NCBI GenBank assembly: GCA_051294905.1
Contig: CM119372.1
Coordinates: forward strand, 8,186,001-8,250,000
Length of the DNA stretch: 64,000 bases
Reading direction: 5' to 3'
Origin: Botryllus schlosseri
Taxonomy: Eukaryota
The position numbers and the translations under genes were made by a program. The notes below the pieces were generated by a model. It had not been told where the DNA came from, did no database searches, and saw nothing but the letters and a program-made list of their open reading frames with translations. Positions 19,050-62,128 of this stretch are shown one piece after another (position 1 is the stretch's first letter; every line of letters starts with the position of its first letter).

Positions 19050-22000
19050 TTACAACTTTTTACAGCAGAACCGGACTTTATAGTCTTCGCACTGCGCATC
19101 CCCCTGCTTGTAATTATGGCAGCTTAAACCGAACCGAATTCCAATTTTGACAGTTTCTCCCGATTCCGTATAAGCCGTATTGTTCTTCACGAGCTTGGCT
19201 TGGATAGCGGTGGGTCGCATGCAGACGGCAGTCCGGTTTCCTCTTCTAATTCGATTGAGATATTCCAGGTCTCCGGTCCCGCTTTTTGGATTGTCGATGT
19301 TAAACCAGGCTGTCCATTGGCTGTCTTTGCACGTGCCGACTTGCCCAGCAACTGTTGAAAATTGTAATTTTTGAAGTGAAACTATGATAACAATTTATTT
19401 CAAAAGAAATCGTAATTTTACGGGAATTCACAGTGATTTTGTAATCATTCTTTGACTTCACAATTGATTTGATCTTACGGAGCACCATTCACGCAATGGG
19501 TAATATGTAGGGTTACCATACGTCCTCATTTAGGAGTGTTTGCCCTCCTTTTTCGGGTTTTTGAAAATGTCCTCCAAGGACGCCTAAATGTCCTCCTTTT
19601 TGAGATTTTGTCCTCTTTTTGAGGTCTCTGGGTCAAATTTATAGCGAAATTCGACTGAGATGCCGCAAATCAGCACCGAAGTGACGCCGAGTGGACAAAC
19701 GACCTTTTTTTTTAGTCAACTACCTGATAAAGTGAAGGAAAAAACAGTATTTTGGTCGCTGAGCGAGAAAGACCTTTTTTTTAAGTCAACCGACTACGAA
19801 GTGGAAAAAATGTACCATTTTTTCAGTATAGGCTATTCCATCGGTATTATAAGTTTGAAAAGTTTGAAAAAGTGTCCTCCCTTTCCGTTTCCAAAATATG
19901 GTAACCCCATAATATGTAACTCAGATATCAGGAATGCTTGACATATCTGATATATACAGAGACTATATAGTCTATCTGTTCAAGTATATGCTTTGCTTAT
20001 GGTTTTCACGCTCGACTACCATGCAGCAAGGCAATCTGAGTTGAGATTTATTAATATAATATGTGTTGGAAGAGTTGACAAATTTTCCTCATGACACTGA
20101 CAGTCACTCACGCTTTTTTGGTTTCGTCACTTGAACTCTGAACATAGTCGACACTTGTCTCGATCTACCCTTGTTTTCTTCGGCATTGCAATTCGAGACG
20201 ACGTTATATAAAACCGTTTTCGACCTCATAACCATTGCCAGCTTTTGCGAGAGACACTGAGGTGCATTAATGGCTTTCATTACGATCGGTTTTGACGGCA
20301 GAATATTTATAATTCCGTTGCTGGATAAACGGAAGTTAATGCGCCCGCCGGACGCTTGTGATATGATCTTTTTGAGGTTAGTAGCTCTTTTCGATCTCGT
20401 CGAAGTTCTGTTCTGCAGACCGATGTCACTTTGCGAGCAACTTCGTATGTATTCTGTTCTGATCTGCGTAATTCTACATAAGATCAAAACATATAGTTCT
20501 TCGGTAAACTCACAGATACTCACTTGCACTCAGAACGATGTTTGTTAAGGAATCTCACTAGTTGTCCGATTTTGTAGGATGGTTTGAACATCTCAGTTCC
20601 CGGCTTGGTGATGATGACTGCTGTCTGTAGGAAAGCGGTATTTGAAAGACACTGGACATAATTCGTTTCCGATCCAGGGCATCCGAGCATTGGTTCAAAC
20701 TTTTGATAAATCGGAGGACGATACACCGGCGGCTCCACGTTTTCACAACGGGTCGACGATCCCTTCGGAGCTATTAAGAGTTGCAAAGTAAATTCACCTC
20801 ATATTAATTATACTTTCGTGTGCGATGAAGAAATTGGTTGCCCGACATATGAGCATGCGACACAATGGAAAACGACAGTTCAGCATGGAACACATCAGCA
20901 TGCGTCACTTCAGCATGTGACTGTATAACCCAAAAACTTACCCTAACCCGAAGCATAGCCTAACCTAACCTAACCTAGCCTAACCTAGCCTAAACCCTAA
21001 CCCTAACCCAACCATCAACCTAACCTAACCTACCCCTAACCCGTAATTTAACCCACATGCCCATGTGTCGCATGCCAAATTGTCGCATGCCGAAGTGTCG
21101 CATGCTGTAATGTCGCATGCTCATATGTCCACGGACCGAAGAAATTGGGACTTTCTTATTAAACCGAATGCGACTGCCATTTTCTGTGACTCCAAACGCC
21201 ATTCCTTTATTGGTTATACTCGTAGCTTTCATTGGCGTTAAAATCGAGTAACACTAAAAAGACTTACTCATGTACTTGACAATGCAATTCTTCACGTGCG
21301 GATATTTGTACGAATTAGGCTTTATGAGATATTTCAGATTGTCCAGCCAGCATTCTAAACCTTTCTCTCTTAAACAGATTTCACATCAGCAAATAACACA
21401 AGAATTCATCACTATATGTTCATCCAATGACGGATATACCTGCAGAAAAATGTGTCGGTAGCATAATACCAGGTGTCATCCCAGACCACGTAGTCGACCA
21501 GGGTTTTCCAACGAACACTCACGCCCGCCAACTTCTTGGAGAGGCATTCCGTGAAAAACGGCCTGACACTTTTCGGAACGCCTTTCCCGCCTTGGCACTT
21601 CGGACGACATCCTTGAAAACAGGCAAATTTTGTGGGCAGAGCATAATTTGATATGCAAAGCGACATTTCCATATTCCACCAGCCTCTGCCTGTCTTTTCC
21701 ATAACATATATTATACATTCCACATACTTCCTACTTTCTCAGTGTCCCGACATCTCATATACATTTATATTTTGCTGTGTGGATACCCTTCAGTGTTTAC
21801 ATGCTAATGACTGTGGATGGAATTATGCACTGTGCATTCCTGATACATCAATTCCACCGCCAATATTGTTGTGAGACGTATCAACGATTTAGGTAACTTC
21901 ATCATTGAAGACAGCTAAGATAAATATAAAGGACTCTTTTGGACTTAAATAGAAGCGAGTTGGACTCAAGACATGCAAAACTAGTGTGTGAACGCATTGC

Positions 22001-22763
22001 TGACCTGCAGTGAGGATGATCGGAAAATTATATAAACCAAAGTTGTTGTCGCATTATAAAATCTCTTAAAATACAACTTTGTATTGCAGCAATCCTCCCT
22101 CCTTGGGTATGTTGTGATAGCGGGTCAACTTATCCCCGTGACATATACACAGATGATATTCAGTAGGTTCATTAGTCTACACGAGATGTGTCAACTCATT
22201 ATTTGTGAGTTGGAGATTTATCGATCCGATCGGGATCAGGGGTGTCTGACAAAAGCCTCGAAAGAAAGTGTCTATGAAGGGGGTATATTCTACCGATACT
22301 ATATTAAAGTAGCTAAGGTATTCATCATGCTGCCTATATTTCCTGAGATATTTCTTGAGATACTTAGAATATAACCAGTCCCACCCGGTTACCCCCTTTC
22401 CTGGCCACTTTCGTCAAGATGGATGGATGGATTGGATACCCCCTTAACGGATACGCCCCGCACTAGCATGACGATATTTCTGATACCTTAGTTAGTTAGT
22501 AGCCTAGGCTTCCGAATATTTCGTATACTGTCTCCTTAACCCCTATAGTAACTTTATGTTACTTGAGATGATGTATAAGTGTTTAGGCGGCCGGGTAATT
22601 GGGATCATGTGATACTATATATACAGCCGACACCATGCTATTTCCTTGTCGCGGGGAAACTAACAGCCTGCTTTAGGTTACCTTGCGTCTCCTCAAAAAA
22701 CAATAACACCACAATGTATATTGCGAAGCGTCTGCATATCATCGTGGATCCAGCGGGTTTCAT
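19050..22763 (-). CDS. Gene A: secreted protein with two novel Cys modules and a C-terminal WxxW/CysD domain (421 aa). Exons 22763-22682, 21611-21440, 21368-21268, 20770-20524, 20473-20112, 19351-19050
   Basis: All introns are GT-AG with phases 1,2,1,2,1; the 1266-nt splice is open to TAA. Signal peptide MKPAGSTMICRRFAIYIVVLLFFEETQG; RSKR site; last exon C..SQWTAWFNIDNPKSGTGDLE...C..PTAIQAK...GLSC.N..Q...CEDYKVRFCC matches the mucin/CILP WxxW domain. Confidence 0.85.
19508..19909. mobile_element. MITE of the tagggttacc family, in intron 5 of gene A
   Basis: Termini tagggttaccata / atggtaacccca; flanking duplication taatatg; tgtcctc repeats; relatives at 26521-27320, 41158-42578 and 48698-49020. 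Confidence 0.85.
20836..21137. mobile_element. Mutator-like MITE with internal telomere-like (CCTAA)n, in intron 3 of gene A
   Basis: Perfect 9-bp TSD gaagaaatt; GG..CC termini; inverted gacatatgagcatgcgaca; internal ccctaa/cctaa repeats; second copy at 40278-41147. Confidence 0.85.
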
Positions 22764-23139
22764 CTAACGGACGTTTACCGCTACCCATCCAGGAACTTGT
22801 CTGTCGTCTCTAATATAGCACATTTGCCTCCGGGGTTTGATTTAAACGCTAGCAATAGCGTATATCTACACTGTAGATTCTAAAGAGAGTGATATCATCC
22901 ATACCGATGAAATTCAACACCTGTAGTGTCAGTGTCATTACACAGCTTGACACGCGTGACTTTGTGAGATATTGATTGAACGCGGAAACTACGTAAATGA
23001 CGTCAACGACATCATACGCATTAGGCAATGTTTAAATATATAATTCTTGTTTTATCGAGAGGCAAATAGCAACTTGAAATTTTATACCGTATATACTTCA
23101 AACAAATAAAAGGAGACACACCACAGACAGGTTTATTAC

Positions 23140-23292
23140 TAATACCGAGAATACTATTACCGAGATGGACACCTCCGAAAATACTATTACCGAGAATGGA
23201 CATTACCGAGAATGTATATTACCGAGAATGGACATTACCAAGAAAGGCAACGACCAAGAATGGACATTACCGAGAAGGACATTACAGAGAAC
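23140..23292 (+). repeat. Array of ~16-bp repeats (ggacattaccgagaat), inverted partner of 25048-25225
   Basis: About 9 degenerate copies; the reverse-complement array lies at 25048-25225. Confidence 0.75.
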
Positions 23293-23899
23293 AAGGTCTA
23301 TACTTGAGATTTGACATAAAATGCACACACATAGGGTTTCGAAAATCTCAACATCGGGATCCAAATTCCTTAAATTTCAACCTACTGACACTAGTTGTGT
23401 CACCGTGACAGCAAAAAACGTTTAACACAAAACTAAGATGGAGCTTGCGGCAGAATAGTACTGACTTTAAAATACTTTTACTTAAAGTATCACGCTCTTC
23501 TGCTTGTGGAAAATAAGATGACTCCTTCCCGTCAGTGCTACAAGTTTGACCAGGGAACAGGCTGGATTTAGCTCCGCTGTCGTACGCTATACGATGAAAA
23601 TCCGAATGGAGAAGACGTCTTTGCCTATCTGGAAGACGCAAACTGATTTGTGCCTCGCCACTTACCAAAATCGAGTTTCGAAAACACCCGCGTATATCTT
23701 GAATGCGTGCGGATATACGTAACCCAGTTGTATTAAAATAATGGTCCAGTGTCGTACGCAAATGGTTTTACACCTCTATAATTGAGCATCGAGAGTTACG
23801 CCGAAGTATCAGGGATATATCTAGTTTTAGATGTCCCTGGAAGTATACACACAAAAACAACGAAGCAGGAGATCTCGTCGACCTCGTCTCTCTTTATAT

Positions 23900-24200
23900 C
23901 AGCAGTTCTCAAACTTGTTTAGACACGCCCCCCTTTTTGATAGCGTCCCCTTATCGTCATATCACAAATGCGATCAGAATGCTGGCAATCCCAACAGATA
24001 TTTTGATGGCATGGGTGGTTATGACTGTTGATGAAATAATTCTCAAATATGAAATTCGGACCAACACACAGAGCAATAACTACGAATTGGAGGTAAATCG
24101 CGTGGAGCGCGAAATTTTTTTTCATTTGACGCAGCTTCGCCCCCTTCAGATGCTTTCACGCCCTCCAAGGAGGGCGCGCCCCTCAGTTTGAGAACCAATG
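23900..24200. mobile_element. MITE (family of 14063-14344)
   Basis: Termini cagcagttctcaaact / agtttgagaaccaatg; body similar to the reverse complement of 14063-14344. Confidence 0.7.
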
Positions 24201-24420
24201 CTCTATCATACCAGTCAGAACCTGATTTCACGGATAATTATATAAATTATAATCCCATCTCCAAGGCGGAATCTGTTAGCCTATATCGTGATGGATCTTG
24301 AGATGATTCGGTTCGCTTGGAAGAGTAACGTCTATACGTCGCGTTTTAAATTCGTTTTATTACTGAACGCCCTGCTCAAATATTTGGGCAAATGGATTAG
24401 GCTCCCATCATATATAGGCG

Positions 24421-24920
24421 CAGTGGTTCCCAACCGGCGGGGAATAAAATGGTTTGTGGTGGGAATAGACGTATTTGTAAAACATCATATACAGGATAGT
24501 CTACAATCTACATATTTACGGAGACACGTACGCGATTACCGTTACCAGTTAACTGCTCTGGAATGTATGTATCGAAAATTATAAATTGAAAGCGTCCTCC
24601 GATGACGCCTAAATGTCCTAATTTTTGGGAATTTGTCCTCTTTTTCTCTGAAAAGGATTTGAATGACATGAAAAATGCGAGCTCGACGCTGTGAACGTCA
24701 GAGTTTCGTAAAAAATCGGAAGCCGAGTCAAAGTGATGACCTTTTTTTGTCAACACAATGCTATCGGTCGAAAAAATTTCAAAATCACCAGTTTTCTTGG
24801 AGATTTCAGAATTTACGGTACCCTATTTTAAAGGGTATATTGGAGTTTTGGGTAGTGGGAAATGAAGACTCGGAATAAATCTGAAGCGGGGAATGAAGAC
24901 AAAAGGGTTGGGAACCACTG
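24421..24920. mobile_element. Buster-like MITE
   Basis: Perfect TIR cagtggttcccaacc / ggttgggaaccactg; degenerate TSD tataggcg / tactagcg. Confidence 0.8.
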
Positions 24921-25047
24921 TACTAGCGCAACAATGGCGTGGAGAAACAATACCTGACATCACTGACCATGACCAATGACCATGCGCCGCGTCTCGCGAG
25001 TAATCTGAATTTCATCGTTTTAAATGACGTTGAATGTTTTTATTATT

Positions 25048-25225
25048 TCCTCGGTATTGTCCATTCTAGGTCATGTCTTTCTCGGTAATGTTCATTATCA
25101 GTAACAGCATTCTCGGTATTGCACATTCTCGGAAATATACATTCTCGGTTGTGTCCATCTCGGTAAAAGCATTCTCGGTTGTGTCCAATGTCCATATCGG
25201 TAATAGCATTCTCGGTATTGACCGG
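25048..25225 (-). repeat. Array of ~16-bp repeats (attctcggtaatgtcc)
   Basis: Reverse complement of the 23140-23292 unit. Confidence 0.75.
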
Positions 25226-25734: not shown

Positions 25735-28700
25735 TCATGCGGTGCACGATAAGAAAAGATTTCGGAGTTCTGAATCATTTTTCACCAGACGGATCATAAC
25801 AGTGTCCAGGCAAGTCTTCGCTGAGTTGCTTCGCGCTTGAAGAAGACTGCATGCTCGGGATGGCTCATTCGTCGTGGGATCGATCGTCTTTTCACTTCTA
25901 GATAAATGAGGATGGGTGTTCGTATTAGTTCATTCCTCAAATTACAGATATCTATGCTCAAATGCGACTTCAGTCCTTCCTTTTCATTAATACATGAATA
26001 AACAGTGCTCAGTCAATTTACCGCTTCGGAACTATTAGAGTAAGAAACCGTGATTCATTGCCCATCCGACATAACTATTTTTGATCACGATCATTTGTGC
26101 TAAAGTCATAGTCAGGCATATTGCAATCGGCAAAGACGACGCGGTCCGCAAATCAATAATTAAGTTACTGCGTTGAAAATTATATATCCGTGTATAAAAT
26201 AGCTGAGTAGGCTTAGTCATGCAATAACAGGGTACGGCAGATAACATAACTTACGAGCAAGGCGATGCATACTCTTGAAAGAACCGGATTACCGACGCCA
26301 TGTCATCCTTAGAACGGGGCTGCATGTTAATCGACAGAGATCGCATGCTTGACATATAAGGATTTTCCACCGATGTAGTGACGCACCGTTCAAACCTTGA
26401 TTCCGAAGCGTCATCGCAGCGCTGAGATGTCACAAATGGCGCAATGCCTAAAATGCATGCCTCGGTTAATGACTCGTACAGATTGCAGATGGCAGTTTCG
26501 CAAAATTATTCCCGAATTATTAGGGTTACCATGTTTTGGAAATTTGAAGAGAGGACACTTTTCCAAAATTTCCGGACTTACAATACTGGAATAAAATCCT
26601 GAAAAATTGGTAAATTTTTTCCGACTTTGTGGTCGGTTAACTGAAAAAAAGGTAATTTTTCTGGATCACGCCCGGGAAAACCCGTCGGTCCGTTACTTGG
26701 CCGCTGATTTCCTATATCTCAGTCCTATTTCCACGTAAATTTAACCAAAATCCTCAGAAAAGGGGACAAATTCTCAAAAAAGAGCACATTTAGGCGTCCT
26801 CCGAGGACACTTTCAAAAAAGTCAAAAAAGAGGACAAATCCTCAGAAAAGAGGACGTATGGTAACTAGGGTTGCATTTATAACAAACGGTGTTTTAAAAC
26901 ACTTTGTTTTAAACTTGTTTTAAACAGTGTTTCAAAAAAAGGCCTTTAAAAAATTGTTTTTTTAAGCAGTAAAATTATGCCATAATTGTGTCATTACTTT
27001 AAAAAAACATTTTATGAGCCTACGGACAATGACCACCCGATGTTGCCGACGTATATCGAAATGGGATGGTTGGAACCTTCAAAATAGTCGGTTCAACAGC
27101 AATAGTACATATATTTCGTCAAATGAGCTATTTCTACCCTATATTTTCAATTGTCAAGGTCAATCCCCTATGACGTCACAATTGAATATTCGTGACGTCA
27201 TGGCTTTGTTAAAAAACACATAAAAAACAATAAAAAACATGTTTTAAATTAGGGCCTTGTTTTAAACATGTTTGTTTTGAATTGATTTTCGTTTTAAATG
27301 CAACCCTGATGGTAACCCTACCGATTACGAGCTAACCGAGCTTACGTCGGAGTCAGTCCATCTTCCGCGTAGGCTATAACTTGTTACAGACATGCAGGTC
27401 GCAGACATTGTATTTGAAAATATGTAGGCCATTACACAGAATTTAGTTTGGTAAAATAGGTATGTTACCTGACGACGGATATCTGCCTGGAGCGGTGGAT
27501 ATAAACGGACTTTTCGTTCTTGTCGGCTGCCAGCTGCCACCATATTGAAACGGTCCGCTGGTTGGCGGAAGTGTCGTTTGCTGCGTCATACTGCGATAGT
27601 GTCGTAGCAAAAGCAACAGGTTCATGTCGTTCTGCGTCAGAGGCTGTCGTCTGTAACTGGACTCGTAATGCACTCTTGCCAGCGGTGTCCTAGTAGACAT
27701 CAGCGCCATTGTAGTTTGTTGAGTTGGTACCCGCCAATGATTCACTACAGGGGGTAGAGTAGTGGATTTAGATGTAACATGTGGTCGCTGAGTCACGGAA
27801 GCGTGCGGGTTAAGCCAACTTGGCAGTGTGGATGGGGTAGGGTGACCTGGGGATATAAATCGCGGTGCCACAACCGGCGCCTGTGTTCTCGCGGGAGGAA
27901 CAAAAACAGGCGCAACAGTTCTATGCGGATTGTGCTGCACGGGCGCTGGTTGTTGTGGGCGGTACGAAGGAGCCCTCGGAGGAACATATGGGATACTTGG
28001 ATAGGTGGCCTGTTGTGGAGCTGTCGTAGGCGATGTTGTTTGCTGCGCGCTGTTTTGAGATAACCTCTGCCTTCGAAACCAGGAGAGCCAAAATGTAGAT
28101 CCCACATCCCTCTTTCGACGACCTGACCTCGCAACTGCGTGAAAATTAAAACAAATATTAGGTTACACGACATCTGATTCGTCAATCTCGGAAAAGTCAT
28201 TAGTAGGTGTCGTTCAGCAGTTGAAAAATACAACTCTATTTTGATAAAGGGCGTATACAAGTGTGCCGAGATTGGCGTACCTCAGCGGTTTCTATGATTT
28301 TCATCCGCCCAAGACACACAATGTACACGAAATGCAATGCATAATGCGATGTTATGACCAGCTATGAGGATGTCGAAACCACCAAGAACGGTCTATCATT
28401 CTTGCATCCACATCACCTAATCGTTAGCTCCATCATTATACAATACATTAACATTGCACACTCACAAAGAACTCACGAATGTTGTCACCGGCGGAAATTG
28501 GAGGGAAAGGGCAAATGCGATCATGCGATCACCACCGATTTTCGCATTTTCTACAGAGTGAGGAGGATGTTGTTGGCCATGTCACGATGTATATGCGACG
28601 TCATCTCCCTAATGAAGTTTTTATTTTTGTTCCCGTATCAAATTGAAATGTGCTTACGCCACCGTTTCTTCACTTTACTATGGAATCGATTTAGGTTAAC

Positions 28701-30675
28701 GGAGGCGCGGTCAAAATTGACCTGCTCGCAAAGAAGAACGCATGCGCTAGATGGTATCATTGAGCTATAAAAGTTTGATCATTTTTATGATGTACGATTG
28801 TACGCCACATTACACTCCCGTACGCTAAGGTACGCAACGCATCCTAGTTTGTATCTAATGTTATCGAATCGAAGCTTGAAACAGGGCAGGCTCACCTTGG
28901 AGTCGAGAAATATTGTCTTTAAATCGAGGTGTGGTTCGACCTCCGGTACTAGCATATTCGCGAATGCATTCGCTGATATGCCGTATATATACCGATGTTG
29001 GGTCGACGAGGAATTTCACTTGCCCGCGCCAACATTCGTCGGTGTCACGCTCCCCCCTGAAATAAAATTAGAATGTTTCTCTCTTTAAATCTCGATGTGC
29101 ATTGCGTTCCAACAAGGAAATCACGGCTGAATTGAATTAGAATTTTAGGATTTCAAGACTTCGTGCTTTTTTTTTGGGTCACTGCATGCGTATTCGTTCC
29201 CATTAAACCGCTTTTGTCATTGTTACATTACTACTATATCGTATACAACTATACATACCAATGTATATACATTTGGATTTTATTGACTGAGATGTAGCAT
29301 CAATAATTATGTACTGAAATGAGGCCATGGAACATGAAAGTTTAAAATGACTTGGTTTGGCCTAAGTTGAACTGCGCGGTATATTGTTGACATTTGGACG
29401 CTGTCTAGATCGTAGTTACACAATGACACGTATTCTTCGGCACATAACAATTTCTCGGAATTGTAAAACGGATTTGGTCAATTCAAAATTATATAGACCC
29501 AATGCGAGTGGCTTTAATGAGCTGGTGAAACCTGATCCATGCGTAATTACGCTTCCGTGTCTGTATTTATCCTAAGATCCATTGTTTATAGCCGTCTATA
29601 AATCTAATTACCGTCAATCAAATTGGCCTGCGGGTAAGAGTGCAGGGTCAAGCGAAATCATTATCTTCGGAGGGTATTTCAAACTGACAAAATTGATCCT
29701 TTCGCGACCTTGTAATTAAGTCGTGCGGTTTCCGTTTGGGGCTTAATGCGACCACTTGTGTCAGTATATACTCCACAAAGCGAAGAATCGCTAAACAAAG
29801 TATGGCATACCGTCGCGCTGTGGACTCGATTACATTTCGGTAATTCAAACTTTAGAGTTGCATTTCCGGCAGTAAACATCTGATTAGTATGCACTTTCAC
29901 AGGAACTGCGGCGGAAATTAGAATAAGAGAAACGGTCTTTGTGCGATATATTTTCGCAGCACGTCCACGATGATATAAGCGAGTATAATACAGGCGTTAA
30001 ATCCTTCCGTTGTTACGTCCTTGGCGCAATAAAAATATGCAAACCGGGTAAATGTGTAGCCAAGGGGATTACAAGGGAGGATCATAAACTTTGTACATGT
30101 GTACTATTACTTGAAGCATAGAATTGTATGTACAGGTAATAACATATAGTCTGCATTTTGGTCGTCAATACTTTGAAAGTAGAAGTTATATTCGACACAA
30201 TGTCATTGCCCCATGCTCGGACAACGTTTTCCGTGTATTTAGTGAAGGATATTATCCATCACCAAATATACGAAATTTCGATTCGGACGGTAACTGAGAA
30301 TGTACGACTCGTATCTTTCAAAACTAACTTTCCAATCCCGCTACACGTCACGCACTTACCCACAGTATGCGTAGCTGCTCTCATCGTACCACGTGGTATC
30401 TTCCACCGTGAATCTTACTACAGCTTCCCAGCGAAAGTCCTTCCCTGCCCTGTCTGATAAGCACTTCGAGAAGAACGATGTCAAGGTGCCGCTAGTACCT
30501 ATTCCGAGAGATCTGGTACTGGATCTTCTTTTGATCGTATGGCAACCTACAACAAAACACGACTTTGATTACATCATTATCAACTAAAGCGGCATGTGCG
30601 ATTTGCGTGCTGATACGTACCTTGGGAAGTCGACATCATCATGAAAAATATTGGTAATATTGCTATGCGGATCAT
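25735..30675 (-). CDS. Gene B: secreted paralog with two novel Cys modules separated by a Pro/Thr/Gln-rich mucin-like exon (474 aa). Exons 30675-30621, 30546-30360, 29056-28896, 28134-27469, 26447-26255, 25897-25735
   Basis: GT-AG introns, phases 1,2,1,1,2; the 1425-nt splice is open to TGA. Signal peptide MIRIAILPIFFMMMSTSQG; FFSKCLS...RWEAVVRFTVEDTTWY...YCG; ECWRGQVKFLV...ECIREY; RRKR site; AATAAA ~280 nt downstream (25449-25454). Confidence 0.85.
26521..27320. mobile_element. tagggttacc-family MITE with a second MITE (26866-27308) inserted in its terminal repeat, in intron 4 of gene B
   Basis: Inner TIRs tagggttgcattt / aaatgcaaccctg; perfect TSD atggtaac, which is part of the outer TIR atggtaacccta. 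Confidence 0.85.
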
Positions 30676-39182: not shown

Positions 39183-39447
39183 ATTACAGCGTTATTTGCG
39201 AAGCCAGAAAACTAATACAATGTTTATAATTTATTGAGTCCAGTGGTGATTCGGTCCGACTTAAGCCGGAAATATTTTCCGAAGTCAAGTCTTGATTCGG
39301 TTCAGTTCGAGCAAGCAAACCAAAACAAGGTCAATTTCAAATTGAGAAATAATATAGAAGAGTACCCCAGTGAGTAGTGTAGTGTGGTACGCTATCTTTC
39401 TGATTTCTCCCCAATATCTGGCACCATCACTATTAACATGTCACCGT

Positions 39448-47012: not shown

Positions 47013-50000
47013 ATGGGGATATCATGCAATATTTTGTGCTACACGGCAGCTGCGCTGGTACTGTATGTCTCCGTTAGTAACGGTGAGCTTAGACAATGAG
47101 TACCAGAAAATATTACCTCATATAATCATAAGAGCGTGTTCAAAATAACTTAAATGAGGGTTTATCGCGCTAATTTCTATTTGGTAGAGAGACGTGGTGA
47201 GGCTATCCATGATTCACTGGTATAAACTCAAATGAAAGTTGCAACATTCTACATCTACGCGTTATTTCGATTCGATTTCCCCATCATGTACATTAGAGTT
47301 GCTCAAAATTAACTTTTTTCAATTTTTTTCGGCTATTAGCTAGAATTGTTAGTTTGACTAAAAACACGTTGCACACCAAATTTGGCTCTATTTCTACAAG
47401 TATCAGTGAAGCTATTAAAGTTGGAAAATTTTGAATTTATTATAAAAAATTGGAAAATTTTCGAACTCTAATCGCTTAATTCGACCATTTTTGGTCCGCT
47501 TACTTTTGACTGAATTCAGCGAAGAAACATCTTTATCCGAATTAAACGGAGAATGAATTGTTGGTTTCGTGGTCATTGGTCAATGGTGATGCATAAAGGC
47601 ATGCACGCAATCCGGTAGAAATACTTTACTGTTGCGTAATAAATGAATTGCAGCTGCGTTATACTGCAGTAATCGGTACTGATCGCATGAAACGTACTAG
47701 AGTTATACCTTCAGGATAGTTGTATGTACAATATTTTTATATATAGGAATTCAACAGATACTGTATTACTGTGTAATTAACTCATTTAGGATTATAATAT
47801 TCCAGTTATTCTTCGAATGTGGTAGTAGCCATGCAGAAACGGCCTAAACGGTATTCTCACTTGAAAAATCCACACCACGAAACAGTGGGAATAAAAATCA
47901 AAAAGCTATTAGCGGGGCACAATATTATTATTGGAAATGCTATCAACGCTAATTGAATGCTAAATCCACCAAACCAACGGTCCCGTACGCTTACGTTGCG
48001 GCTGCGTCTTGAATTTGGCGTCAAGTGAATTTGAATAACTGCATGATGATGCCACATCCTGTTCTACAAGATGGACGCAATTGTGTCCTTGCATGAGCTC
48101 ATTGTCGATTGTTACTTCATGGATCGCCTTTGTCTCGCACTAATCACTCATCTTGTATTAAAACGAACGAAGTAGGCCTACTACGTATTTCGTCATAACC
48201 AAAGGATAGAAATAGCGAGAATGAGTTCGAATTATCCAAAGTTTTTTACGTGCAATTTTAACTTTTGTTTCGTACCCGAGCATTTTGGTAGAATAAGACG
48301 GTTGTGCGGGTTATCCGGTGTTCGAATTAAAGGAGCACTGCACTCTAAAAATGATGTGTTCTCAAATTTAAGGGCAAAATGAAAAAAAAAATTTGGCCAC
48401 AGCCATTTTCTTTAGAACGCCACCGTAATGGAGCTGCAATTTATTGAAATTTCCATATAGAACCTTCAAGCTCCAGCTGCCACGGCAGCGCGTCATCGTC
48501 TCTTGACCCGTTGATAAAATTTATGGCGCGACATCTTCACCGTCGCACTTGCTCGACGCGATTAGGCAATCACTTAGAGAACAAACTTTAGATAGCTGTC
48601 AGCCGATATTATGAAGGAATTTTGTCTTACACACCAGGGTGGTTTAGTTACGTTAAGTATAGGCGTAATGTACCGGCGCTCAACGTATGATGTTAAGTAG
48701 GGTTACCATACGTGTTCTTTTAAGAGGATTTGTCCTCTTTTTTGACTTTTTTGAAAGTGTCCTCGGAGGACGCCCTTTTGTCCTCTTTTTTGAGATATTG
48801 TCCTCTTTTCTGAGAATTTTGGTCATATTTATAGCCCAATTCGACTGAGATGCCGTAAATCAGCACCGAAGTGACGCTCCGGCGGGTATTTCGGGAGCTG
48901 AGCGGAAAGTTGACCTTTTTATTTTTTTACTCAACCGACCACAAAGTGGGACAAATTTACCATTTTGTCAGAATTCTCCTCCGGTTTTGCAAGTCTGAAA
49001 ATTCTGAAAAAGTGTCCTGAGGATTTGTGTCATGACTTTATAATATTTGCCAGTTGCCTGATACTGAGATGCCATTACAGTTGTATATTTATGCAAAGCT
49101 ATCTATAGAGCTGTAATTTTCAAGCTGTAATTTCAGTCCACAACCTTTAGAGTAGGACATGATCTATTTTTGTCCTAAAGAAATAGAATACACTAGGTCC
49201 GATTTAGACATAAATCTCCTGACTGAACTGAACATCGTCCGTTGAACGCCGTATCTAAACCACCTTCGCGTGTAAGACATATTTCCTTCATAACATCGGC
49301 TGTAAACTGAGTGACTGCCTAATCGCGTCGAGCAAGTGCGATGGTGAAGACATTCTGTCATGTAACGAGTTAAGAAATGACGCGCAGCCGCGACAGCTGG
49401 AGTGTGAAGGTCCTGTGTAAATTTCAATAAATTGCAGCTCCATTACGGTGGCGTTCTGAAGAAAATGGCTGGGGTCAATTTTTTTTCGTTTTGCCCTTCA
49501 ATTTGAGACCACATCATTTTTAGAGTGTAGTGCCCCTTTAAGCGGAGTTGAATGTATATAATTTCGGATAACTTCAGTAACCCTCAACATGCAGCTTGCC
49601 ACATCGCGGCGCACACGAAGCCAACCGCCCCGCTGGATTTTAGTGGCAGGAAGAAAAGAAGTGCGGATTGCGCTAACTGTGCGGAGGATGTCGACGAAGA
49701 GTTATCCGCATTCTTTACCGAGTGCATGGAGAGGAAACGTCCGCAACAATTCAAATCGTGGCGGGGGGTGGTGAACTTCGTCTTGCGAGACAGTCTGTGG
49801 TACACCGCGACTGACAGATCATACTGCAGGTAAGACAATTTGCGATGGTGGCAAATGTATTTCGACGTAGTGCCTGTCAGAGTTGAATCAATTACATTAA
49901 ATCAGTTTAATTACGATTACAATTACTCCCTTGCATGTTTTAATTACATTACAATAACAATTACTCCATGCCAAAAATATCAAATTACAATTACAATTAC

Positions 50001-56000: not shown

Positions 56001-59000
56001 GTCATTTTAAGGTTTTTAAACTTCCTGCACCGTGTATTTCAAGCTCTCTTATTGAATTTTCTATTAACTATGACGTCACATTGATCCATCATTCAATTCA
56101 TAATAGTTGGTTGTTAGTTAGTAACGATCATCTTCTCAGTCTCAGTTAGTCAGTATTGGCCACAGAAAGCAATCTCAAATTCCTTTTCGTTTTGTTCTGT
56201 TAATGCGCTGATTGTGGACCTAATTAGTATAATCTCATTATAAATGTCAACATCACAAATGAAATCTACCAGCTTGCTGTTTTTGCCATATCTGTGGCCT
56301 GCATATCAGTTTGACAAGTTAAGTACAAAATATAGTTAGAACTATAAGTTTTTTTTTTATGCTTAACTGTACTTTGGCATGAAAATTGGAGACAAAGATA
56401 AAAACTGGGCATTCCATGTAATCTGTGAAACATGCCGATGAAATGTGGATGGATGGCTAGGGGAAGATCGACATTCAATGTCATTTGCTATTGAAGAATC
56501 TGAAGGGAATTTCGAAACCTTATATGTGACTACAATTTCTGCATGCACTCCAAGATTCAGAATAACTAAACAATGACTTGACATTGCATATCCTTCTATG
56601 CCATCTCCTCTTAAGCACCTGCTCCGTATTGCAGTAAGTTTTCACTGCCCAAACTATGAGGCAAAAAAGCTCCAGAAGAGTCGACAGGGCTTAAAGATAC
56701 AGAAAACGACTCCAAAGACGACTTCAACATATCTCATATAGCTATTAATCCAGAACCACGCGAAATTGATGATTTAGTTGGGATTCAAAAATCTAATGCG
56801 GAAATTCGGACTCCAAGGTTGAACTAGGGAACTTGTTGCGTTCATCGTGTCGATGTCCTTCGTCGAGAAAAGTGCATGAACGATTTTCAGGGTATTTTTC
56901 TGTGGCAGGTTCTCCTTGCCTATGCGGCAATGTGGGCAATCTTTTGTAAAGCACTTGACAATAAAATGACTGCGGGAAAAGCAGGAGCATTCAAGGCATT
57001 TCGAGATGTAATTGTGCATATTCTTTCTTTTTGTTAGTGCATTCATATTACAGGGCAATTTTTGAGTAAAACGCGAAATCAGAAAAAGTGACATTTCTCA
57101 AAGTCTAGGGACAGTTCAGAAGAAAATTTTGTATTTTAGTGATTGGTTTGGAATAGCAAAACACAATACATAAAAATTTTTACTCAACTGAAATTTTGCA
57201 AAATTTTATTACATGGTGTTATTTGTGGTCCATAGGGAGAGAAGATTTCTCATTTCACAGAAGCAAGTCACGCAAACAAAACTACTTCTGACAATTTTTA
57301 AAGTGTTGCATTGTTACATGATGCATGAGTAAGCTATATTTGTTCATATTATCCTTTTCATTAACGTTTTCTTTCGTCCAATAAAGAATTATTGTGATCA
57401 ATATCGAGCAATTATGAGTAAAATCAAAAATTAGAGAAATTGACATTTCTTCAAAATTTGGGACACTTCAGAAAAAATTATGGTATTTTGGTAATTAGTT
57501 TGGAATACTAAAACACAATACATCAATAATTTTGCAAAATTTTGTTACATGGTGTGATCTATTCATTACGACGAGCAAATTACATTGGGTGTGTGTGGCG
57601 AGATAGCGTAGTGGTTTAATCCACAGCTGCAACACAAATGCGCTGCGGGTTCGAGTTCAACCGAGGTCGACTCCAGCATTCCTTCGTACGTGTTGGAGGT
57701 TTATCTATAGGCTCCTCCTCGCCATATCATCCAGGAAAGCGGTGTCTTGAAAAAGTCTAGAAGTGGGCCGTGCGACAAGTCGGCAGCTACGGAATAAAAA
57801 TGAAGAAAATTGGCTTGCTGAAAAGGACCATAGTAGTCGACAAACACCGTGAATACCAAAAACAAAACATTGGTTGTTTGTGTTATAAAATAATAAACAG
57901 AGCTTTGGCAGGAATTGAATCGGCGTCTCGGGTCTATTAAGATGCTTGGAATCACTGCACTGGATTCTAATCTCTGAACGGAAGTGTATTCAGTCCATTT
58001 CTATCGTAGTGTGCAAATCAGGTCAATAACACTTTCTGGTACGAAATCTTGCTCCCACACCTGTTCCAGATGGAGAAAATGAGACAAATACACCAATTCA
58101 TATAGGGGTATGGAAATTCTAGAGTAGGTTCTGTTTGCGTGTACCACGTTTTAGGATAGTATAATGCAAGCTTTAGTCGTTAAGGGTGTCACTGTATATA
58201 AATAACCGGGCAGTGATAAGTTGTATTACATAAATAATATTTAATTATGATATTTATTATTTACTCGCTATAGCGACCCCTAATGATTCATCCGAATTTG
58301 GCGAACATTGCAAGCGATGTTATACCTGCATGTTATGGACAACTTTCGGCAGGCTTATTTCCAAATCCCGCAGTTCACAGACAAAGAGTTTCTATGAGTT
58401 TAGTAAGTAGGCTATAGATATCACAATTGAATGTTCGGTTTCCAATTTCGATGCTATTACAAGACATTATCTAAAGAATTATCGACTGGTTCTCGATAAG
58501 CAAAGAGGAAGTCATCGGTTTTCGAATCGAGAGACAGAATCGCATGCCGGGTTCGGGGGATCAAGACTGTTAAAATCAATCAAACCGGATCGGATCCAAA
58601 AAATACTGCAATCCTCAACACATTCAACTCTTTGTACTCCTGCGCGCACAAATTCTCTCTCTTTCGCAACAGTGGCAGGAAGGACAGTGCTAAATGCTGG
58701 CAAAGACGGGTGATGTATTTGCTGCGATATGACTCGATGATTGTGGAGCCGACGAAATCGTGCATCAGCGAATACGACAGATCAATAAAAGATCTATGTA
58801 AGCGCTCATGGCACTTGTATTAGGTAGCCTATAGAAGGAACGGTTTATTTATGGTTGGTTCTCAACTGTGATGCGTAAAGGAAATAGTATTTTCTACTGG
58901 AACCTTCCGCTCAAAATGCGTAAACTGAATTGCGTTTCATCCAGACATGGATGCGACCTCTGTTCTCAGTATCTCGAAAAGAAAACATTATCGTTTAATT

Positions 59001-62000
59001 ATTGGGGGTAAACAGAATCGGTTCACAGTTGATTCGAATGACAAACCAATATTCATGCCAGTATCGAATCACTCTCTTAAAATTATGTTCAATAACTGGA
59101 ATAAAATGCCAATAATACTTCCAAAATACCGGTGTCTTGAATGAGCGAGTGTCTAGCAAGCACCCAATTCTCCACGTTTTAAGGGGACGTTGACCGCGCA
59201 ATTGATTCGAGCAAGTCAGTGGTGAGATAGGGTTGCTACTCAAGCAGAAGTATAGAAGAATCTATTTCCAAGACATGTCAAAACTACAACAAGTAGAAGT
59301 AGAAATGAAGATGTGAAAGTACTCAACTGAGTAGTTTCGAAAACTAGATTTGGCCAAGGGATCGCATACTTTTCGCAATTAATCGGAGGTGGTTACATAT
59401 ATACTTTCAAAATTGCAAGATTTATCTTGACGACTAACCCGACTACATAACAATACAAATATAGGTTCAAGCGCCTGTCGCCCCATTGGACACTCCACTG
59501 ACTCATACCTGAAAATTTGCAGACGGCACCGAATTTGAAGAATTCTACGTTAACAATTTCGACTCGTACGACTCATCTTCATCCATGGGAGAATTTCACC
59601 AGCTGATGAAGACCGCACAGCATACCATAGACTCGGCCATGGACCTTATCCGTGAGAAAGGGGCCACTATAAAAAAGCGGCTTTGTCCTTCCAAGTTCAA
59701 CAAAGGATTCTACCAGAAATGCGCCGCGTCTTCTTTCAATTCCAAGACGCACTCTATCTCTGATCAGTTTTCGCCATCGCAGCTCTTCGACCGCACGTCC
59801 GTCTTTGACTTCCTCAATACCGACTTTACAAGCTGCAGGTGAGAAGTTGATGCTGGTCGTTCCCGATTTGTTTCGGAAATTTCTGATATCGGTGTATACA
59901 TTTTGTTTCATCGCTGGCGAACGATAGATTCTCATACACGCAGAAAGTCTGGTGTAGAAGTTGAAAAGATATACTACGAGAAACCGAGCCATATCAAATC
60001 CAAATAGTGTTGATGGAACTGCAATGAGCGCCTCCAATATTTACAATACGGATAGGGATACTATATTCATTTTGTTTTTCTAATCAAGTACAAATACAAG
60101 TCCACGGACTCGAAATCGCGATCATTTACATGGAAATTTATGGTCATCACATCTCATGTCAATAATTGGAAGTTCATGCCCATGTAGACTATGCGACATA
60201 ATATCCCATTATGACTATATAATAATCAACTACCTCAAGGCTGTAGAACGTAATTTGGCGTATAGTTTCCAACATAAATGCATTTAACATATCTTCTCGA
60301 GAAATCGTGACTCAAGTCATTGAAATACGTAACGATTATGTTTTAAGACATACCCTTGCTACATTGTTCACAGGATATCTACTAAAGATCAAAACGGGAC
60401 AACTCTATACCAAGAGGATTGCCCCCTATCAGAAACAGCTACTGAAAGCACTTCGCTCGTCCATTCTGATATAGCGATTGTAACGCCTTGTCTTGTTTAC
60501 GATTATCGATCTATCGTGAGGTCCAATTCGCCGGGATATTCTTTAATTACGAGTTGCTATGAAAATGAAGGGTCCACTCTCACTCAATCTGAGACAGCGA
60601 CTAGCCCCGAAGCGCCGTTAACGGTACCGACGCCGATTTTGGAAAACTCCATACTACACAAAAATTTCAAGAATAAAAGTACGTACATTCGCAATTACAT
60701 TGTATATATACAGCAACGACGTGTTATAATCGGATCAGATTCAATATGCGGTGTCATGTGATGTTAACACAAAACAATATGCGAAATATTAAAGCAAAGG
60801 GAATGGAGTCGAGACCGCAGAGGTGCCATTGGATGGAAAGTAGATCCCAACGAAAACTCAGCAAATATACGAATAATCCACATACTCGACTGGGACTAAC
60901 GCTTAGCTCACGTATGCTCAGCAGTGTTGGGATCAAGTTACTACCTTTGAGTTATAAGTAATCTCGAGTCATTGCAAATTTTGACTCGAGGCAAGTCAAG
61001 TCATTCTATTATCGCAATCAGGGCATGTCACACAGGGCATGTCAGCGAGTACCTTGTACAGGTACAGCGACTTCGTTGACACCGATTACTTGATCAATTG
61101 AAATTGACTTGAAAATTTTGCTTCGAGTCACGGGCCAATCCATATTTTTGAAACGCCGAGTTAAGTTCAACTCAATACATTTTTGCCAAGTGACTCGAGT
61201 CAAGTGAAGTCATCTAAAAAGTTTACTCGAGTCGTTCCAACACTGATCCGCAGTGGAGATAAGAATTAGTTGATGACCAATGCTCTGAACTTTCAGTGAC
61301 TTGACTTTGAATATCCCCGTTGGCAATGTCTTAGTATATTTTTAAAATGTTATATTCTATTCTATTTATCATTATATCAGTCAATGGATGGCGTTTATCG
61401 GCCCTTGTCTGCTTCACAAACTACGAGTGATTAATAGACTATATGACAAGCTAATCAGATTTTTTACTGGTAACAACGAATTCGGCCATGATGATAAATT
61501 AACTAGGAGCATGGTCATTGGTCAAAAATCAGTTGTACCGGCAGATGTCTTCAGTGATCGGCTGAAAAATTCTTTCACCGCGGCCGTTCGTCACGATTAT
61601 AGATAGCCTATACGAGCAACTTATAAGGGCAAGGAATCGCAGGTATTACAAGCTATTTAAACGCGTGCGAATATTCTCATCAGTCGTTTATTGTGCAATA
61701 AGAGCGATCACTCAGCACCATATTCTTGCAATTGAAAAGTATCAGATCCAAGCCAACAACTGTAGATCGGCATTTCAATCGTTGAAAACAGTGAAATGAC
61801 CGTAAGCACCACCGTTTTCATTTTATCAGAAAGGATCGGCTCATGCGGTATGCTTAGCAAATGGACAAGTTATCACAACCTGGGCCCCCCAGACGAAATT
61901 GGAGACACGGAAACGCTGGAGGGACTGTTGAAATTCTATCCGGGCGCCGCATGCGAAAATCCAACGGCCGTGGAGGCGCGCACAGTCACAGATAACTCGA

Positions 62001-62128
62001 GCGGCGATGACGTATTTCTGTCGCTCACTGATGGCTTACGATGTCTACACGTGATGCAGAAAGGAAGATCATGCTCGGATTATAAAATACGATTTTGTTG
62101 CCGAATAATAAACTTTTGGGCAAAGTAA
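47013..62128 (+). CDS. Gene C: secreted paralog with two novel Cys modules and a C-terminal WxxW/CysD domain (449 aa). Exons 47013-47082, 49595-49829, 58673-58797, 59523-59838, 60374-60678, 61830-62128
   Basis: GT-AG introns, phases 1,2,1,2,1 (same as gene A); the 1350-nt splice is open to TAA. Signal peptide MGISCNILCYTAAALVLYVSVSNA; RKKR site; FFTECM...SWRGVVNFVLRDSLWYTATDRSYC; KCWQRRVMYLL...SCISEY; last exon KWTSYHN..PP..IGDTE...CENPTAVEAR...GLRC...Q...CSDYKIRFCC. Confidence 0.82.
48331..49537. mobile_element. TTAA-targeting non-autonomous element (Kolobok/T2-MITE-like) in intron 1 of gene C, with a truncated tagggttacc MITE inside (48698-~49020)
   Basis: ttaa|aggagcactgcactctaaaaatgatg ... 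catcatttttagagtgtagtgcccct|ttaa; inverted arms of more than 100 bp. Confidence 0.85.
50100..51100 (-). pseudogene. hAT (ZBED-type) transposase fragments
   Basis: ITHLKR (end of BED finger), DQLPLSIVASQTFRILL, and NVTRCNSQLVML (TRWNS motif), in broken frames. Confidence 0.75.
51345..51930. repeat. Inverted repeat / foldback MITE with ~165-bp arms
   Basis: gaatgtaaacatggaacggcaacgacc... at 51345 mirrors ...ggtcgttgccattccatgtttacattc ending at 51930. Confidence 0.8.
52515..52670. repeat. Minisatellite, ~41-45-bp unit x4 (ctatacggcgtttggcgtctg...gagacgcc), hairpin-forming
   Basis: Four visible copies, each with an internal ggcgtct / agacgcc inverted pair. Confidence 0.85.
53265..53475. repeat. 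Minisatellite, ~30-bp unit x6-7 (aaacaagcaacgaaaccacagtaaaagtc)
   Basis: Directly visible tandem copies. Confidence 0.85.
53720..55284. mobile_element. gactcga-repeat MITE containing a Buster-like MITE (53924-54620), both inside the hAT relic
   Basis: TIRs cagtgttgggat / atcccaacactg with TSD ggttggac / gtttggac; inner TIRs cagggctggtcaacc / ggttggccggccctg. Confidence 0.8.
55893..57556. mobile_element. Unclassified TIR element with coding relics, in intron 2 of gene C
   Basis: TIRs acaccatgtaacaaaa / ttttgttacatggtgt; right end duplicated (57060-57220 resembles 57410-57556); Cys-rich broken ORFs on the minus strand. Confidence 0.65.
57594..57870 (+). mobile_element. tRNA-derived SINE (type 2)
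   Basis: gtggcgagatagcgtagtggt ... ggttcgagttc; body matches 37352-37623. Confidence 0.8.
60922..61245. mobile_element. gactcga-repeat MITE in intron 5 of gene C
   Basis: TIRs cagtgttgg / ccaacactg; TSD atgctcag / atccgcag; related to 53720-55284. Confidence 0.8.

Follow-up and report, generated by a model that had tools for sequence, protein, structure and literature searches.

Modules whose exons begin and end in phase 1, such as TSP1, EGF, CUB and Sushi, build mosaic extracellular proteins, a phase rule of the exon-shuffling literature. Lang et al. (2016; PMC4948705) treat CysD and Mucin2_WxxW as one and the same domain; in their account, MUC2- and MUC5-type mucins contain it within their Pro/Thr/Ser-rich (PTS) regions. 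Two of the three genes analysed here, A and C, encode in their last exon a CysD domain of the type present in the gel-forming mucins MUC2, MUC5AC and MUC5B. All three lie in a 64,000-nt window of the Botryllus schlosseri genome (assembly GCA_051294905.1, contig CM119372.1, positions 8,186,001-8,250,000, forward strand), A and B on the minus strand and C on the plus strand. Our analysis indicates that their products are very probably mosaic proteins that are secreted and have a head domain that is duplicated and so far undescribed.

Each gene was re-derived as six exons, with GT-AG boundaries at 15 of 15 introns and intron phases of 1, 2, 1, 2 and 1. The product of A has 421 aa from an in-frame ATG at 22763, or 414 aa from the ATG at 22742; those of B and C have 474 and 449 aa. 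The lengths of 421, 474 and 449 aa are those given in an initial annotation of this DNA, which had proposed six-exon genes with first exons ending in phase 1. The exons, in window positions and with the evidence for each in parentheses, are:

22682..22742, minus: A exon 1, start codon and signal-peptide-like region, phase-1 end, with an alternative in-frame ATG at 22763 (sequence; RNA joint to exon 2)
21440..21611, minus: A exon 2, conserved N-terminal Cys and module 1a (FFTEC...WY...C), phase-2 end two bases past a Cys codon (motif; X1/X3 joint 21368/21440)
21268..21368, minus: A exon 3, module 1b (CW-x20-CIVKY), phase-1 end (motif; donor GTAAGT)
20524..20770, minus: A exon 4, module 2a, phase-2 end two bases past a Cys codon (X1/X3 contig ends/starts at 20770, joint 20524 to 20473; family profile)
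20112..20473, minus: A exon 5, module 2b and an inserted stretch with RSKR, phase-1 end (RNA joints 20473/20524 and 19351/20112; family profile)
19050..19351, minus: A exon 6, Mucin2_WxxW (CysD) domain and stop codon (Pfam PF13330, E 1.3e-23, 83.9 bits)
30621..30675, minus: B exon 1, start codon and signal-peptide-like region, phase 1 (sequence)
30360..30546, minus: B exon 2, conserved Cys and module 1a, phase-2 end past a Cys codon (motif; X3 contig over 30359-30544)
28896..29056, minus: B exon 3, module 1b, phase-1 end (motif)
27469..28134, minus: B exon 4, Pro/Thr/Ser-rich spacer, phase 1-1, starting with RRKR (X3 contigs: start 28134, joint at about 27468 to 26446)
26255..26447, minus: B exon 5, module 2a, phase-2 end past a Cys codon (joined on both sides in an X3 contig; in frame; family-profile match)
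25735..25897, minus: B exon 6, module 2b and stop codon, with the 3' UTR reaching at least 25469 (X3 contig; family profile)
47013..47082, plus: C exon 1, start codon and signal-peptide-like region, phase 1 (consensus-like GTGAGC donor; 449-aa total; alignment of homologue P0002)
49595..49829, plus: C exon 2, conserved Cys, RKKR site and module 1a, phase-2 end (motif; homologue alignment)
58673..58797, plus: C exon 3, module 1b, phase-1 end (motif; homologue alignment)
59523..59838, plus: C exon 4, module 2a, phase-2 end two bases past a Cys codon (homologue alignment; family profile)
60374..60678, plus: C exon 5, module 2b and linker, phase-1 end (homologue alignment; family profile)
61830..62128, plus: C exon 6, Mucin2_WxxW (CysD) domain and stop codon (Pfam PF13330, E 1.1e-15, 58.5 bits)

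The initial annotation had proposed checking the junctions against RNA; in RNA contigs and raw reads, A and most of B prove to be spliced as modelled. Four of the five introns of A (19352-20111, 20474-20523, 21369-21439 and 21612-22681) appear among the joints listed for the X1 and X3 RNA contigs, and the joint between A exons 1 and 2, at 21610/22681 (or 21611/22682 if cut one base further on), is also crossed by seven raw reads of RNA run X24. Exons 4, 5 and 6 of B are joined in one X3 contig (record 8), and another X3 contig contains the start of exon 4 at 28134; RNA coverage of B is low, with a contig depth of 4-9. In X3 record 10, the 92 nt upstream of B exon 2 map elsewhere and would represent B exon 1, and X3 record 9 opens with 160 unplaced nt that probably correspond to B exon 3, which is 161 nt long. 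For C exon 1 we chose the candidate with the GTGAGC donor, which ranks sixth by hydrophobicity among the ATG-initiated phase-1 candidates; the choice is consistent with homologue P0002, which aligns with C from residue 1 and end to end (42% identity over 446 columns, E 2e-126). Judged by eye, the first exons of A, B and C encode a basic start, then 11-14 hydrophobic residues, with a Gly or Ala ahead of a conserved Cys. This Cys directly follows the signal-peptide exon in all three genes, the preceding codon being split by the phase-1 intron, and its column shows at least 90% conservation in alignments of 25 and 21 relatives.

The head of each protein spans ~230 residues, the first half forming module 1 and the second half module 2. 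Two signatures of module 1 were counted in the window: among 2,207 stop-to-stop open reading frames (at least 20 aa, six frames), W..[LV]V.[FY].[VL].D..WY occurs in three (21415-21738 and 30359-30568 on the minus strand, 49552-49830 on the plus strand), and CW-x15-25-C[IVL]..[YF] in another three (21257-21385 and 28864-29067, minus; 58500-58820, plus). The scan reproduces the spacing first reported for this module, FFxxC-x33/32/33-C in A, B and C followed by CW-x20-CIxxY. All three thus carry the module 1 signature by which we define the family, FFxxC ... W..[VI]V.[FY] ... WY ... C followed by CW-x20-C[IV]xxY. Paralogy of the three genes, also proposed at the outset, is borne out by blastp between the module 1a reading frames, with E values of 1.8e-9 for C/A and 1e-7 for both C/B and B/A; the last exons of A and C match at 8e-17. 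As had been noted, there is no similarity at the DNA level: comparison of the three coding sequences by blastn (word size 7, E<=1) gave no match. Neighbouring genes are 23-31% identical on a fixed frame of Cys and aromatic residues. Ratios of dN/dS are about 0.2-0.5, below 1 in all four measurable pairs of close paralogues (module 1a, 49 codons), and together with relatives in Styela, Ciona and Clavelina they agree with the earlier view of an old family under purifying selection.

Modules 1 and 2 have the same architecture. The head unit consists of ~90 residues with four conserved Cys, encoded by an exon pair that is phase 1-1 overall, and in both modules a phase-2 intron separates the two exons, two bases past a Cys codon. 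Profile-profile alignment of module 1 with module 2 (hhalign) gives a probability of 93.8%, an E value of 1.8e-7 and a score of 41, compared with scores of 9.2 and 10.5 for reversed controls and 12.2 for the best of 30 column shuffles. As judged from these alignments, module 2 is module 1 in a second, diverged copy, and the head a tandem duplication of one unit. The family profile covers residues 6-413 of A and 12-442 of C, and in B it covers residues 1-175 and 363-473. The second B segment, encoded by exons 5-6, matches profile positions 152-243, which correspond to module 2, with a conditional E of 8.3e-11. In B, a phase 1-1 Pro/Thr/Ser-rich exon has been inserted between the two head units; this spacer of 222 codons (221 aa) contains 15% P, 12% T and 11% S.

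Structure models were of moderate confidence (mean pLDDT about 70). Module 1 is predicted to form five helices (pLDDT 84-95), and the model of the head alone is all-helical (pTM 0.68). No Pfam family falls on the head in any of the 31 profile-search matches (E<=0.001), and none is shared on the head among 21 members at E<=1. A sequence profile search of the PDB returned nothing covering the head, and fold searches gave best VIA-align Z scores of 3.1-3.4, a best Foldseek E of 0.83 and no usable match in the ESM Atlas. Going by these searches, the head is a domain undescribed in Pfam and among solved structures.

The tails of A and C are of a known type. Exon 6 of both genes scores above the PF13330 gathering cut-off of 22.4 bits; the W-x-x-W motif reads W-T-A-W in A and W-T-S-Y in C, where the second Trp is replaced. 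B falls outside PF13330 because none of its exons scanned with Pfam matches the family. The fold was compared on an A-like protein of Styela (P0005) rather than on A itself: VIA-align matches its CysD domain to MUC2 and MUC5B CysD structures with Z scores of 10.6, 10.3 and 10.3 (rmsd 2.2 Å, 84-91 residues), of which 8ck2_A (MUC2 CysD1) gives 10.6 with an rmsd of 2.2 Å over 84 aligned residues and 8oer_I gives 10.3, and Foldseek gives an E value of 5.9e-5.

The Botryllus schlosseri genome contains at least 24 loci of the family (17 plus 7 further), at least five of them in the local cluster. Searched against 1.84 billion proteins, a profile built from 15 paralogues has 31 matches at E<=1e-3, with relatives in Styela, Ciona and Clavelina. 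The family is apparently restricted to ascidians, as far as can be gauged from one profile search over 49 positions in which 30 matches were looked up, 11 of them without an organism name. In the relatives, the head always comprises two units, with unit 1 at the extreme N-terminus, and the C-terminal domains include CysD, TSP1, EGF, CUB, Sushi, trefoil and LDL-receptor repeats. The initial annotation had presented a hidden cluster of three genes built on one unrecognised cysteine module, and several parts of that description need revision. Module 1 does match no Pfam family, solved-structure sequence or fold, but NCBI annotates the relatives as 'uncharacterized protein'. There are three paralogues in the window, but two more lie just beyond its end, in addition to the loci elsewhere in the genome. 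Module 1 does unite the three genes; overlooked were the CysD domains of A and C, module 2 with its homology to module 1, and a set of convertase-type sites.

These sites flank unit 1. Ahead of FFxxC, the motif R-x-[KR]-R occurs in 12 of 17 paralogues in the Botryllus schlosseri genome; for homologues the count is 22 of 30. In the 24 homologues whose module 1 is complete, counted by regular expression with the start mis-set in a few proteins (P0002, P0004, P0005 and P0018), it is present before the module in 18, within 70 aa after it in 13 and on both sides in 11; by our own estimate, chance would give a rate of about 0.02 per 70-aa stretch. In the linker, the majority consensus is RxKR. Within the window, A has no site at either head position, B has one only after unit 1 (RRKR at 140) and C only before it (RKKR at 42).

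The interpretation we favour, at slightly better than an even chance when taken as a whole, is that A, B and C are expressed genes for secreted mosaic glycoproteins of a multigene family so far seen only in ascidians, with a head that functions in binding or assembly and is tethered to a matrix. A signal-peptide-like exon is followed at once by the conserved Cys and then by the predicted all-helical head, in which disulfides would lock the helices of each unit. In much of the family, proprotein convertases may cleave R-x-[KR]-R sites on either side of unit 1. The head would serve as a family-specific binding or assembly part, and the C-terminal modules would hold it in an extracellular secretion or matrix, such as mucus, tunic or a blood-facing matrix. 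The narrower proposal that the head is a binding part tethered to matrix or mucus is plausible, though it falls somewhat short of an even chance. The roles suggested in the initial annotation (mucus net, tunic, adhesive or defence proteins) are conjectural. Chance chains of reading frames or pseudogenes are a highly improbable source of these models: one could point to the shallow coverage of B and to the reliance of C on sequence comparison, but the spliced contigs and junction reads essentially refute this for A and B, and the open frames, uniform GT-AG introns and full-length collinear relatives in other species argue against it throughout. Gene C, supported by its open spliced frame and full-length homologues, is on present comparisons a real gene.

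Other functions for the head are less probable. It might be a fast-diverging surface that binds microbes or non-self, carried on complement-like or adhesive modules, as the size of the family, its tandem clusters, the low identity of neighbours on a fixed Cys and aromatic frame, and the partner domains TSP1, CUB, Sushi and CysD would suggest; however, dN/dS for module 1a stays below 1 and matrix proteins use the same partner domains, and we regard this as unlikely. The convertase-type sites raise a further option, in which the head unit is a new extracellular fold from the tunicate lineage and unit 1, at about 100 residues, is cut free as a diffusible, two-disulfide helical ligand, cytokine- or hormone-like and tunicate-specific, with unit 2 and the CysD, TSP1, CUB or LDL-receptor-like tail left as a matrix-binding carrier or depot. 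The counts of flanking sites against the estimated chance rate, the linker consensus and the invariably N-terminal position of unit 1 are consistent with such a pro-factor. Against it, both sites are missing from A, and only one is present in B and one in C; conservation extends to unit 2, as would suit a domain of two units; and the few residues that precede the first site include a conserved Cys and may therefore stay disulfide-linked. We consider release of a ligand quite unlikely. It is similarly doubtful that the head belongs to a known family of helical, disulfide-rich proteins as a member too remote for our searches to detect. Helical bundles are hard to match, and VIA-align Z scores below about 13 are uninformative for helical proteins, but neither the fold searches, nor Pfam at E<=1, nor PDB sequences provided a match on the head.

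With this family, a domain absent from Pfam and without a match among solved structures receives a name and boundaries; it heads at least 24 genes in Botryllus schlosseri and many 'uncharacterized' proteins of Styela, Ciona and Clavelina. The family offers a clean case of a lineage building new extracellular proteins: tandem duplication of a two-exon phase 1-1 unit was followed by its attachment to CysD, TSP1, CUB, EGF, Sushi or LDL-receptor modules. Should the head turn out to be a ligand, or to serve in assembling mucus, tunic or blood-facing matrix, it would bear on structures special to tunicates. Expression mapping, structure determination and knock-out in Ciona now have a well-defined target in it.

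Compared with gel-forming mucins, A and C have a single C-terminal CysD domain instead of CysD domains interspersed in long PTS arrays, and B, unlike MUC2, MUC5AC and MUC5B, has none. A stretch resembling a short PTS region is present only in B, in exon 4, and is lacking from A and C. The N-terminal VWD-C8-TIL units of these mucins were found neither in the exons of A, B and C (Pfam, E<=1) nor in the 31 relatives (E<=0.001), and the Pfam scan of A, B and C found no cystine-knot domain. The closest counterparts are three Styela clava proteins encoded on one 25.6-Mb chromosome record, for whose loci we found no name, function or paper. XP_039267712 (LOC120342798) is collinear with A end to end (45% identity, 416 columns, E 7e-127) and has the same head and CysD tail; XP_039267694 (LOC120342784) aligns with B end to end (29% over 520 columns, E 3e-51) and has the same head and PTS spacer; XP_039267313 (LOC120342514) is collinear with C over its full length (32% identity) and has the same head, with two CysD domains rather than one. 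As in other phase 1-1 mosaic proteins, phase 1 is found at both ends of the head unit, of the PTS exon of B and of the CysD exon. The head unit differs from the usual modules of this class, being in none of the domain libraries searched, always N-terminal, always present in two copies and split by an internal phase-2 intron.

In A, B and C, the three six-exon family genes of the window (A and B in tandem on the minus strand, C on the plus strand), an N-terminal hydrophobic exon is spliced to a duplicated head of ~230 residues, predicted to be helical, whose two units (modules 1 and 2) have ~90 residues and four cysteines each; RNA from A and B demonstrates expression. We searched the 2,207 stop-to-stop ORFs of at least 20 aa in this 64-kb window of a 495-Mb genome for the two halves of module 1 (exons 1a and 1b), and each was found in three ORFs:

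21415-21738, minus strand: module 1 core, W..[LV]V.[FY].[VL].D..WY
30359-30568, minus strand: module 1 core
49552-49830, plus strand: module 1 core
21257-21385, minus strand: second half of module 1, CW-~20-C[IVL]..[YF]
28864-29067, minus strand: second half of module 1
58500-58820, plus strand: second half of module 1

The cysteine spacings given in the initial annotation (x33/x32/x33 and x20) were reproduced from the ORF sequences. In an ORF-versus-ORF blastp comparison, the first halves of module 1 from A, B and C match one another with E values between 2e-9 and 1e-7; for the last exon of A against that of C, the E value is 8e-17.

Gene models were built by reading the sequence and splicing the exons by script; for C, the upstream sequence was scanned for a signal-peptide exon ending in phase 1. 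A, B and C each have six exons and the same series of phases following exons 1-5 (1,2,1,2,1), and 15/15 introns have GT-AG ends. B encodes 474 aa and C encodes 449 aa; the length of A depends on its start codon, with 414 aa if translation begins at ATG 22742 and 421 aa if it begins at the in-frame ATG 22763, which is immediately preceded by a stop codon. Because splicing returns the 421, 474 and 449 aa reported initially, those six-exon models are evidently identical to ours. For B, we preferred the junction from 28896 to 28134 because the donor is strong, the frame is kept, a contig from the coded sequencing run X3 fits and the product is 474 aa. We discarded an alternative donor for exon 3 (A|GTACCG, around 28950) together with a short putative exon at ~28476-28551.

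The junctions had been proposed for checking against RNA, and in A and B the X1, X3 and X24 sequencing runs yield spliced products for four of A's five introns and for the joints between exons 4, 5 and 6 of B. Contigs from X1 and X3 skip 19352-20111, 20474-20523, 21369-21439 and 21612-22681 in A, and every skipped segment has the reverse complement of GT..AG at its ends. The joint between exons 1 and 2 of A is also found in seven raw reads of X24, a run on record as RNA, whose reads on the stretch are mostly repeat-derived (a fraction of 0.96 run on into unlike sequence). The exon 3/4 joint of A is absent among the joints listed; the length of one X3 contig (1,534 nt) would fit a continuation through exons 3, 2 and 1. 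An X3 contig of B runs through 27736-27468, 26446-26255 and 25897-25469 and so shows that splicing connects the long proline-rich ORF with two more coding exons. In a second X3 contig, exon 4 begins exactly at 28134 and the other 160 nt place elsewhere; exon 3 of B has 161 nt. The 3' untranslated region of B, at 25469-25734 on the minus strand in the X3 contig, extends at least 266 nt beyond the stop codon.

Interspersed repeats lie within introns and in the stretch separating A from B; there, X1 and X3 contig depth reaches thousands (up to ~14,900) and loose ends are numerous; related copies lie at 48650-49100. The other features of the window are as follows:

7630-9381, minus strand: uninterrupted ORF of 584 aa, Patatin-like phospholipase (PF01734, E 1.5e-26, residues 39-203)
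19435-19868, 22907-23340, 23775-25076 and 26379-27680: the interspersed repeats described above
20946-21042: TTAGG/TTAGGG-like microsatellite inside intron 3 of A, skipped as a repeat in read mapping
39358-40046: inverted duplication with opposite-strand ORFs, 75% identical over 117 aa
50343-50975, minus strand: pair of neighbouring ORFs (110 and 100 aa) within intron 2 of C, which spans 8.8 kb

The patatin-like ORF is a nearby gene with no relation to the head family. The ORFs of the inverted duplication have no Pfam match, and the sole match for the pair at 50343-50975 is sub-threshold (IMD, E 0.0012).

The head extends beyond the module 1 first described and consists of an internally duplicated unit. 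Two alignments, of 25 and of 21 relatives, show a conserved order of a cysteine after the signal peptide, usually R-x-x-R, module 1, a linker with the majority consensus RxKR, and module 2, which ends in SPL....C. The family profile spans residues 6-413 of A and 12-442 of C; its match to B falls into two segments (residues 1-175 and 363-473), which identifies exons 5-6 of B as module 2 (conditional E 8.3e-11). Aligned with hhalign, modules 1 and 2 match over 76 columns with a probability of 93.8%, an E value of 1.8e-7 and a score of 41, compared with 9.2 and 10.5 for reversed modules and a maximum of 12.2 (median 7.9) for 30 column shuffles. Gene structure agrees with this duplication: a phase-2 intron two bases after a cysteine codon splits the unit in 6/6 cases (two per gene), and each two-exon unit is in phase 1 at its start and end. 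In B, the two units are separated by exon 4, an inserted phase 1-1 exon of 222 codons with a high content of Pro (15%), Thr (12%) and Ser (11%).

The cluster extends beyond the three genes initially described. A query with module 1a of A found 17 places in the window's own genome and a second single query found seven more, giving at least 24 loci. Two members lie just outside the window, so that the local cluster has at least five genes, and a second tandem cluster lies on another contig:

G000:C2:8254871-8255014 and G000:C2:8280637-8280783 (contig carrying the window), plus strand, as C: family loci L002, L004 and L018, 4.9 kb and 30.7 kb beyond the window end
G000:C5:3490454-3516413, minus strand: second tandem cluster of four members (L007, L011, L012, L015), 80-94% identical in module 1a

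In module 1a, the first of the two loci past the window end shares 64% identity with C.

A profile built from 15 paralogous segments of module 1a matched 31 of 1.84 billion representative proteins at E<=1e-3 (four at E<=1e-10), always near the N-terminus. We looked up 30 of these 31 relatives, most of which are labelled 'uncharacterized', and 19/19 with a named organism are ascidian (nine from Styela clava, eight from Clavelina lepadiformis and one each from Ciona intestinalis and Ciona savignyi). A word-index protein search with a longer module 1a of A, the head of the homologue P0012 or the head alignment returned nothing new or only three Styela proteins, the index being too coarse for this family. 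In support of the gene models, all three spliced proteins match homologues along their whole length: A matches S. clava XP_039267712 (45% identity over 416 columns, E 7e-127), B matches S. clava LOC120342784 (29% over 520 columns, E 3e-51), and C matches both the transcript-derived protein P0002 (42% over 446 columns, E 2e-126) and S. clava LOC120342514 (32%). LOC120342784 (P0024, B-like), LOC120342791 (P0010, a family member) and LOC120342798 (P0005, A-like) lie on one 25.6-Mb S. clava chromosome record, and their near-consecutive gene numbers hint that the cluster is conserved between species.

Among A, B and C themselves, protein identity is 23% over 436 columns for A and C, 31% over 122 for A and B and 29% over 93 for B and C. 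Blastn finds no similarity among the three coding sequences at E<=1, in agreement with the initial annotation. In module 1a (49 codons), dS between C and its downstream neighbour is saturated, and dN/dS is 0.49, 0.22, 0.30 and 0.23 in four more similar pairs of paralogues from other parts of the genome. These values and the occurrence of relatives in three ascidian genera support the earlier proposal of an old family under purifying selection.

Module 1 had been described as unrecognised, and this holds at the reach of our searches. No Pfam family falls on the head in any of the 31 relatives, nor is any common to the heads of 21 members at E<=1. AlphaFold predicts module 1 as five helices (pLDDT 84-95), and for P0028, a Styela member that consists of the head alone, the model is helical throughout (pTM 0.68, mean pLDDT 69.7). 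VIA-align found no solved-structure match for the head of either model among 48,161 chains (best Z 3.4 and 3.1), the best Foldseek E value for the head was 0.83, a PDB sequence profile search returned nothing on it, and the ESM Atlas gave no usable match for the P0028 head. The head could still be an undetected member of a known helical family, which we regard as improbable; likeness to saposin-like, RAMP, Frizzled-CRD, GFR-alpha and CD38 proteins was considered, and none is among the fold matches listed. A two-copy complex prediction of the P0028 head gave no verdict (score 0.00), with the partner's own fold uncertain and the supplied alignment unused. Our literature search, which covered text outside supplementary tables, found no paper on this family. 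The genes had been called hidden, yet NCBI has models of their relatives, so this does not hold in general; for the head itself, our searches returned neither a name nor a domain entry, and neither a structure nor a paper.

We are highly confident in the architectural reading of A, B and C as mosaic proteins, predicted to be secreted, that carry an undescribed duplicated head domain. How the proteins work is more tentative. Disulfides would brace each head unit, and many family members may be matured by convertases around unit 1. R-x-[KR]-R occurs between the N-terminal cysteine and FFxxC in 12/17 paralogues in this genome and 22/30 homologues. Among homologues with a complete module 1, a site lies before it in 18/24, within 70 residues after it in 13/24 and on both sides in 11/24, counts that are approximate because the regular expression mis-set the start in four proteins; by our own estimate, chance would give ~0.02 sites per 70 residues. 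Within the window the pattern is incomplete: A lacks a site at either position, module 1 of C is preceded by RKKR, and that of B is followed by RRKR. Cleavage of this kind could belong to a released ligand, a reading of low probability.

Behind the shared N-terminal region, 15/31 relatives carry known modules (CysD in six, TSP1 in five plus one weak, EGF in two, and CUB, Sushi, trefoil and LDL-receptor class B repeats in one each), and the other 16 have no Pfam match. Such interchangeable C-terminal modules might anchor the head in secretion or matrix, with the head itself serving as a family-specific binding or assembly surface. A binding role tethered to matrix or mucus is possible, and we propose it tentatively; a recognition or defence family, which would also use the head for binding, is unlikely.

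A and C carry a CysD tail behind the head. The last exon of A matches Pfam Mucin2_WxxW with an E value of 1.3e-23 and that of C with 1.1e-15 (cut-off 22.4 bits); the remaining scanned exons of A, B and C have zero Pfam matches at the curated cut-off. Lang et al. (2016; PMC4948705) use the name CysD for the Mucin2_WxxW domain, which they describe in mucins of the MUC2 and MUC5 types. When the Styela A-like protein is modelled with AlphaFold (mean pLDDT 70.9), its CysD superposes on MUC2 CysD1 and MUC5B with Z scores of 10.6 and 10.3 (rmsd 2.2 Å, 84-91 residues), and its Foldseek E value is 5.9e-5. Gel-forming mucins differ from A, B and C in their VWD, C8 and TIL domains, which Pfam finds neither in the exons of the three genes nor in the 31 relatives, and A, B and C are therefore not gel-forming mucins. 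The head is a new domain family within an ordinary kind of protein.
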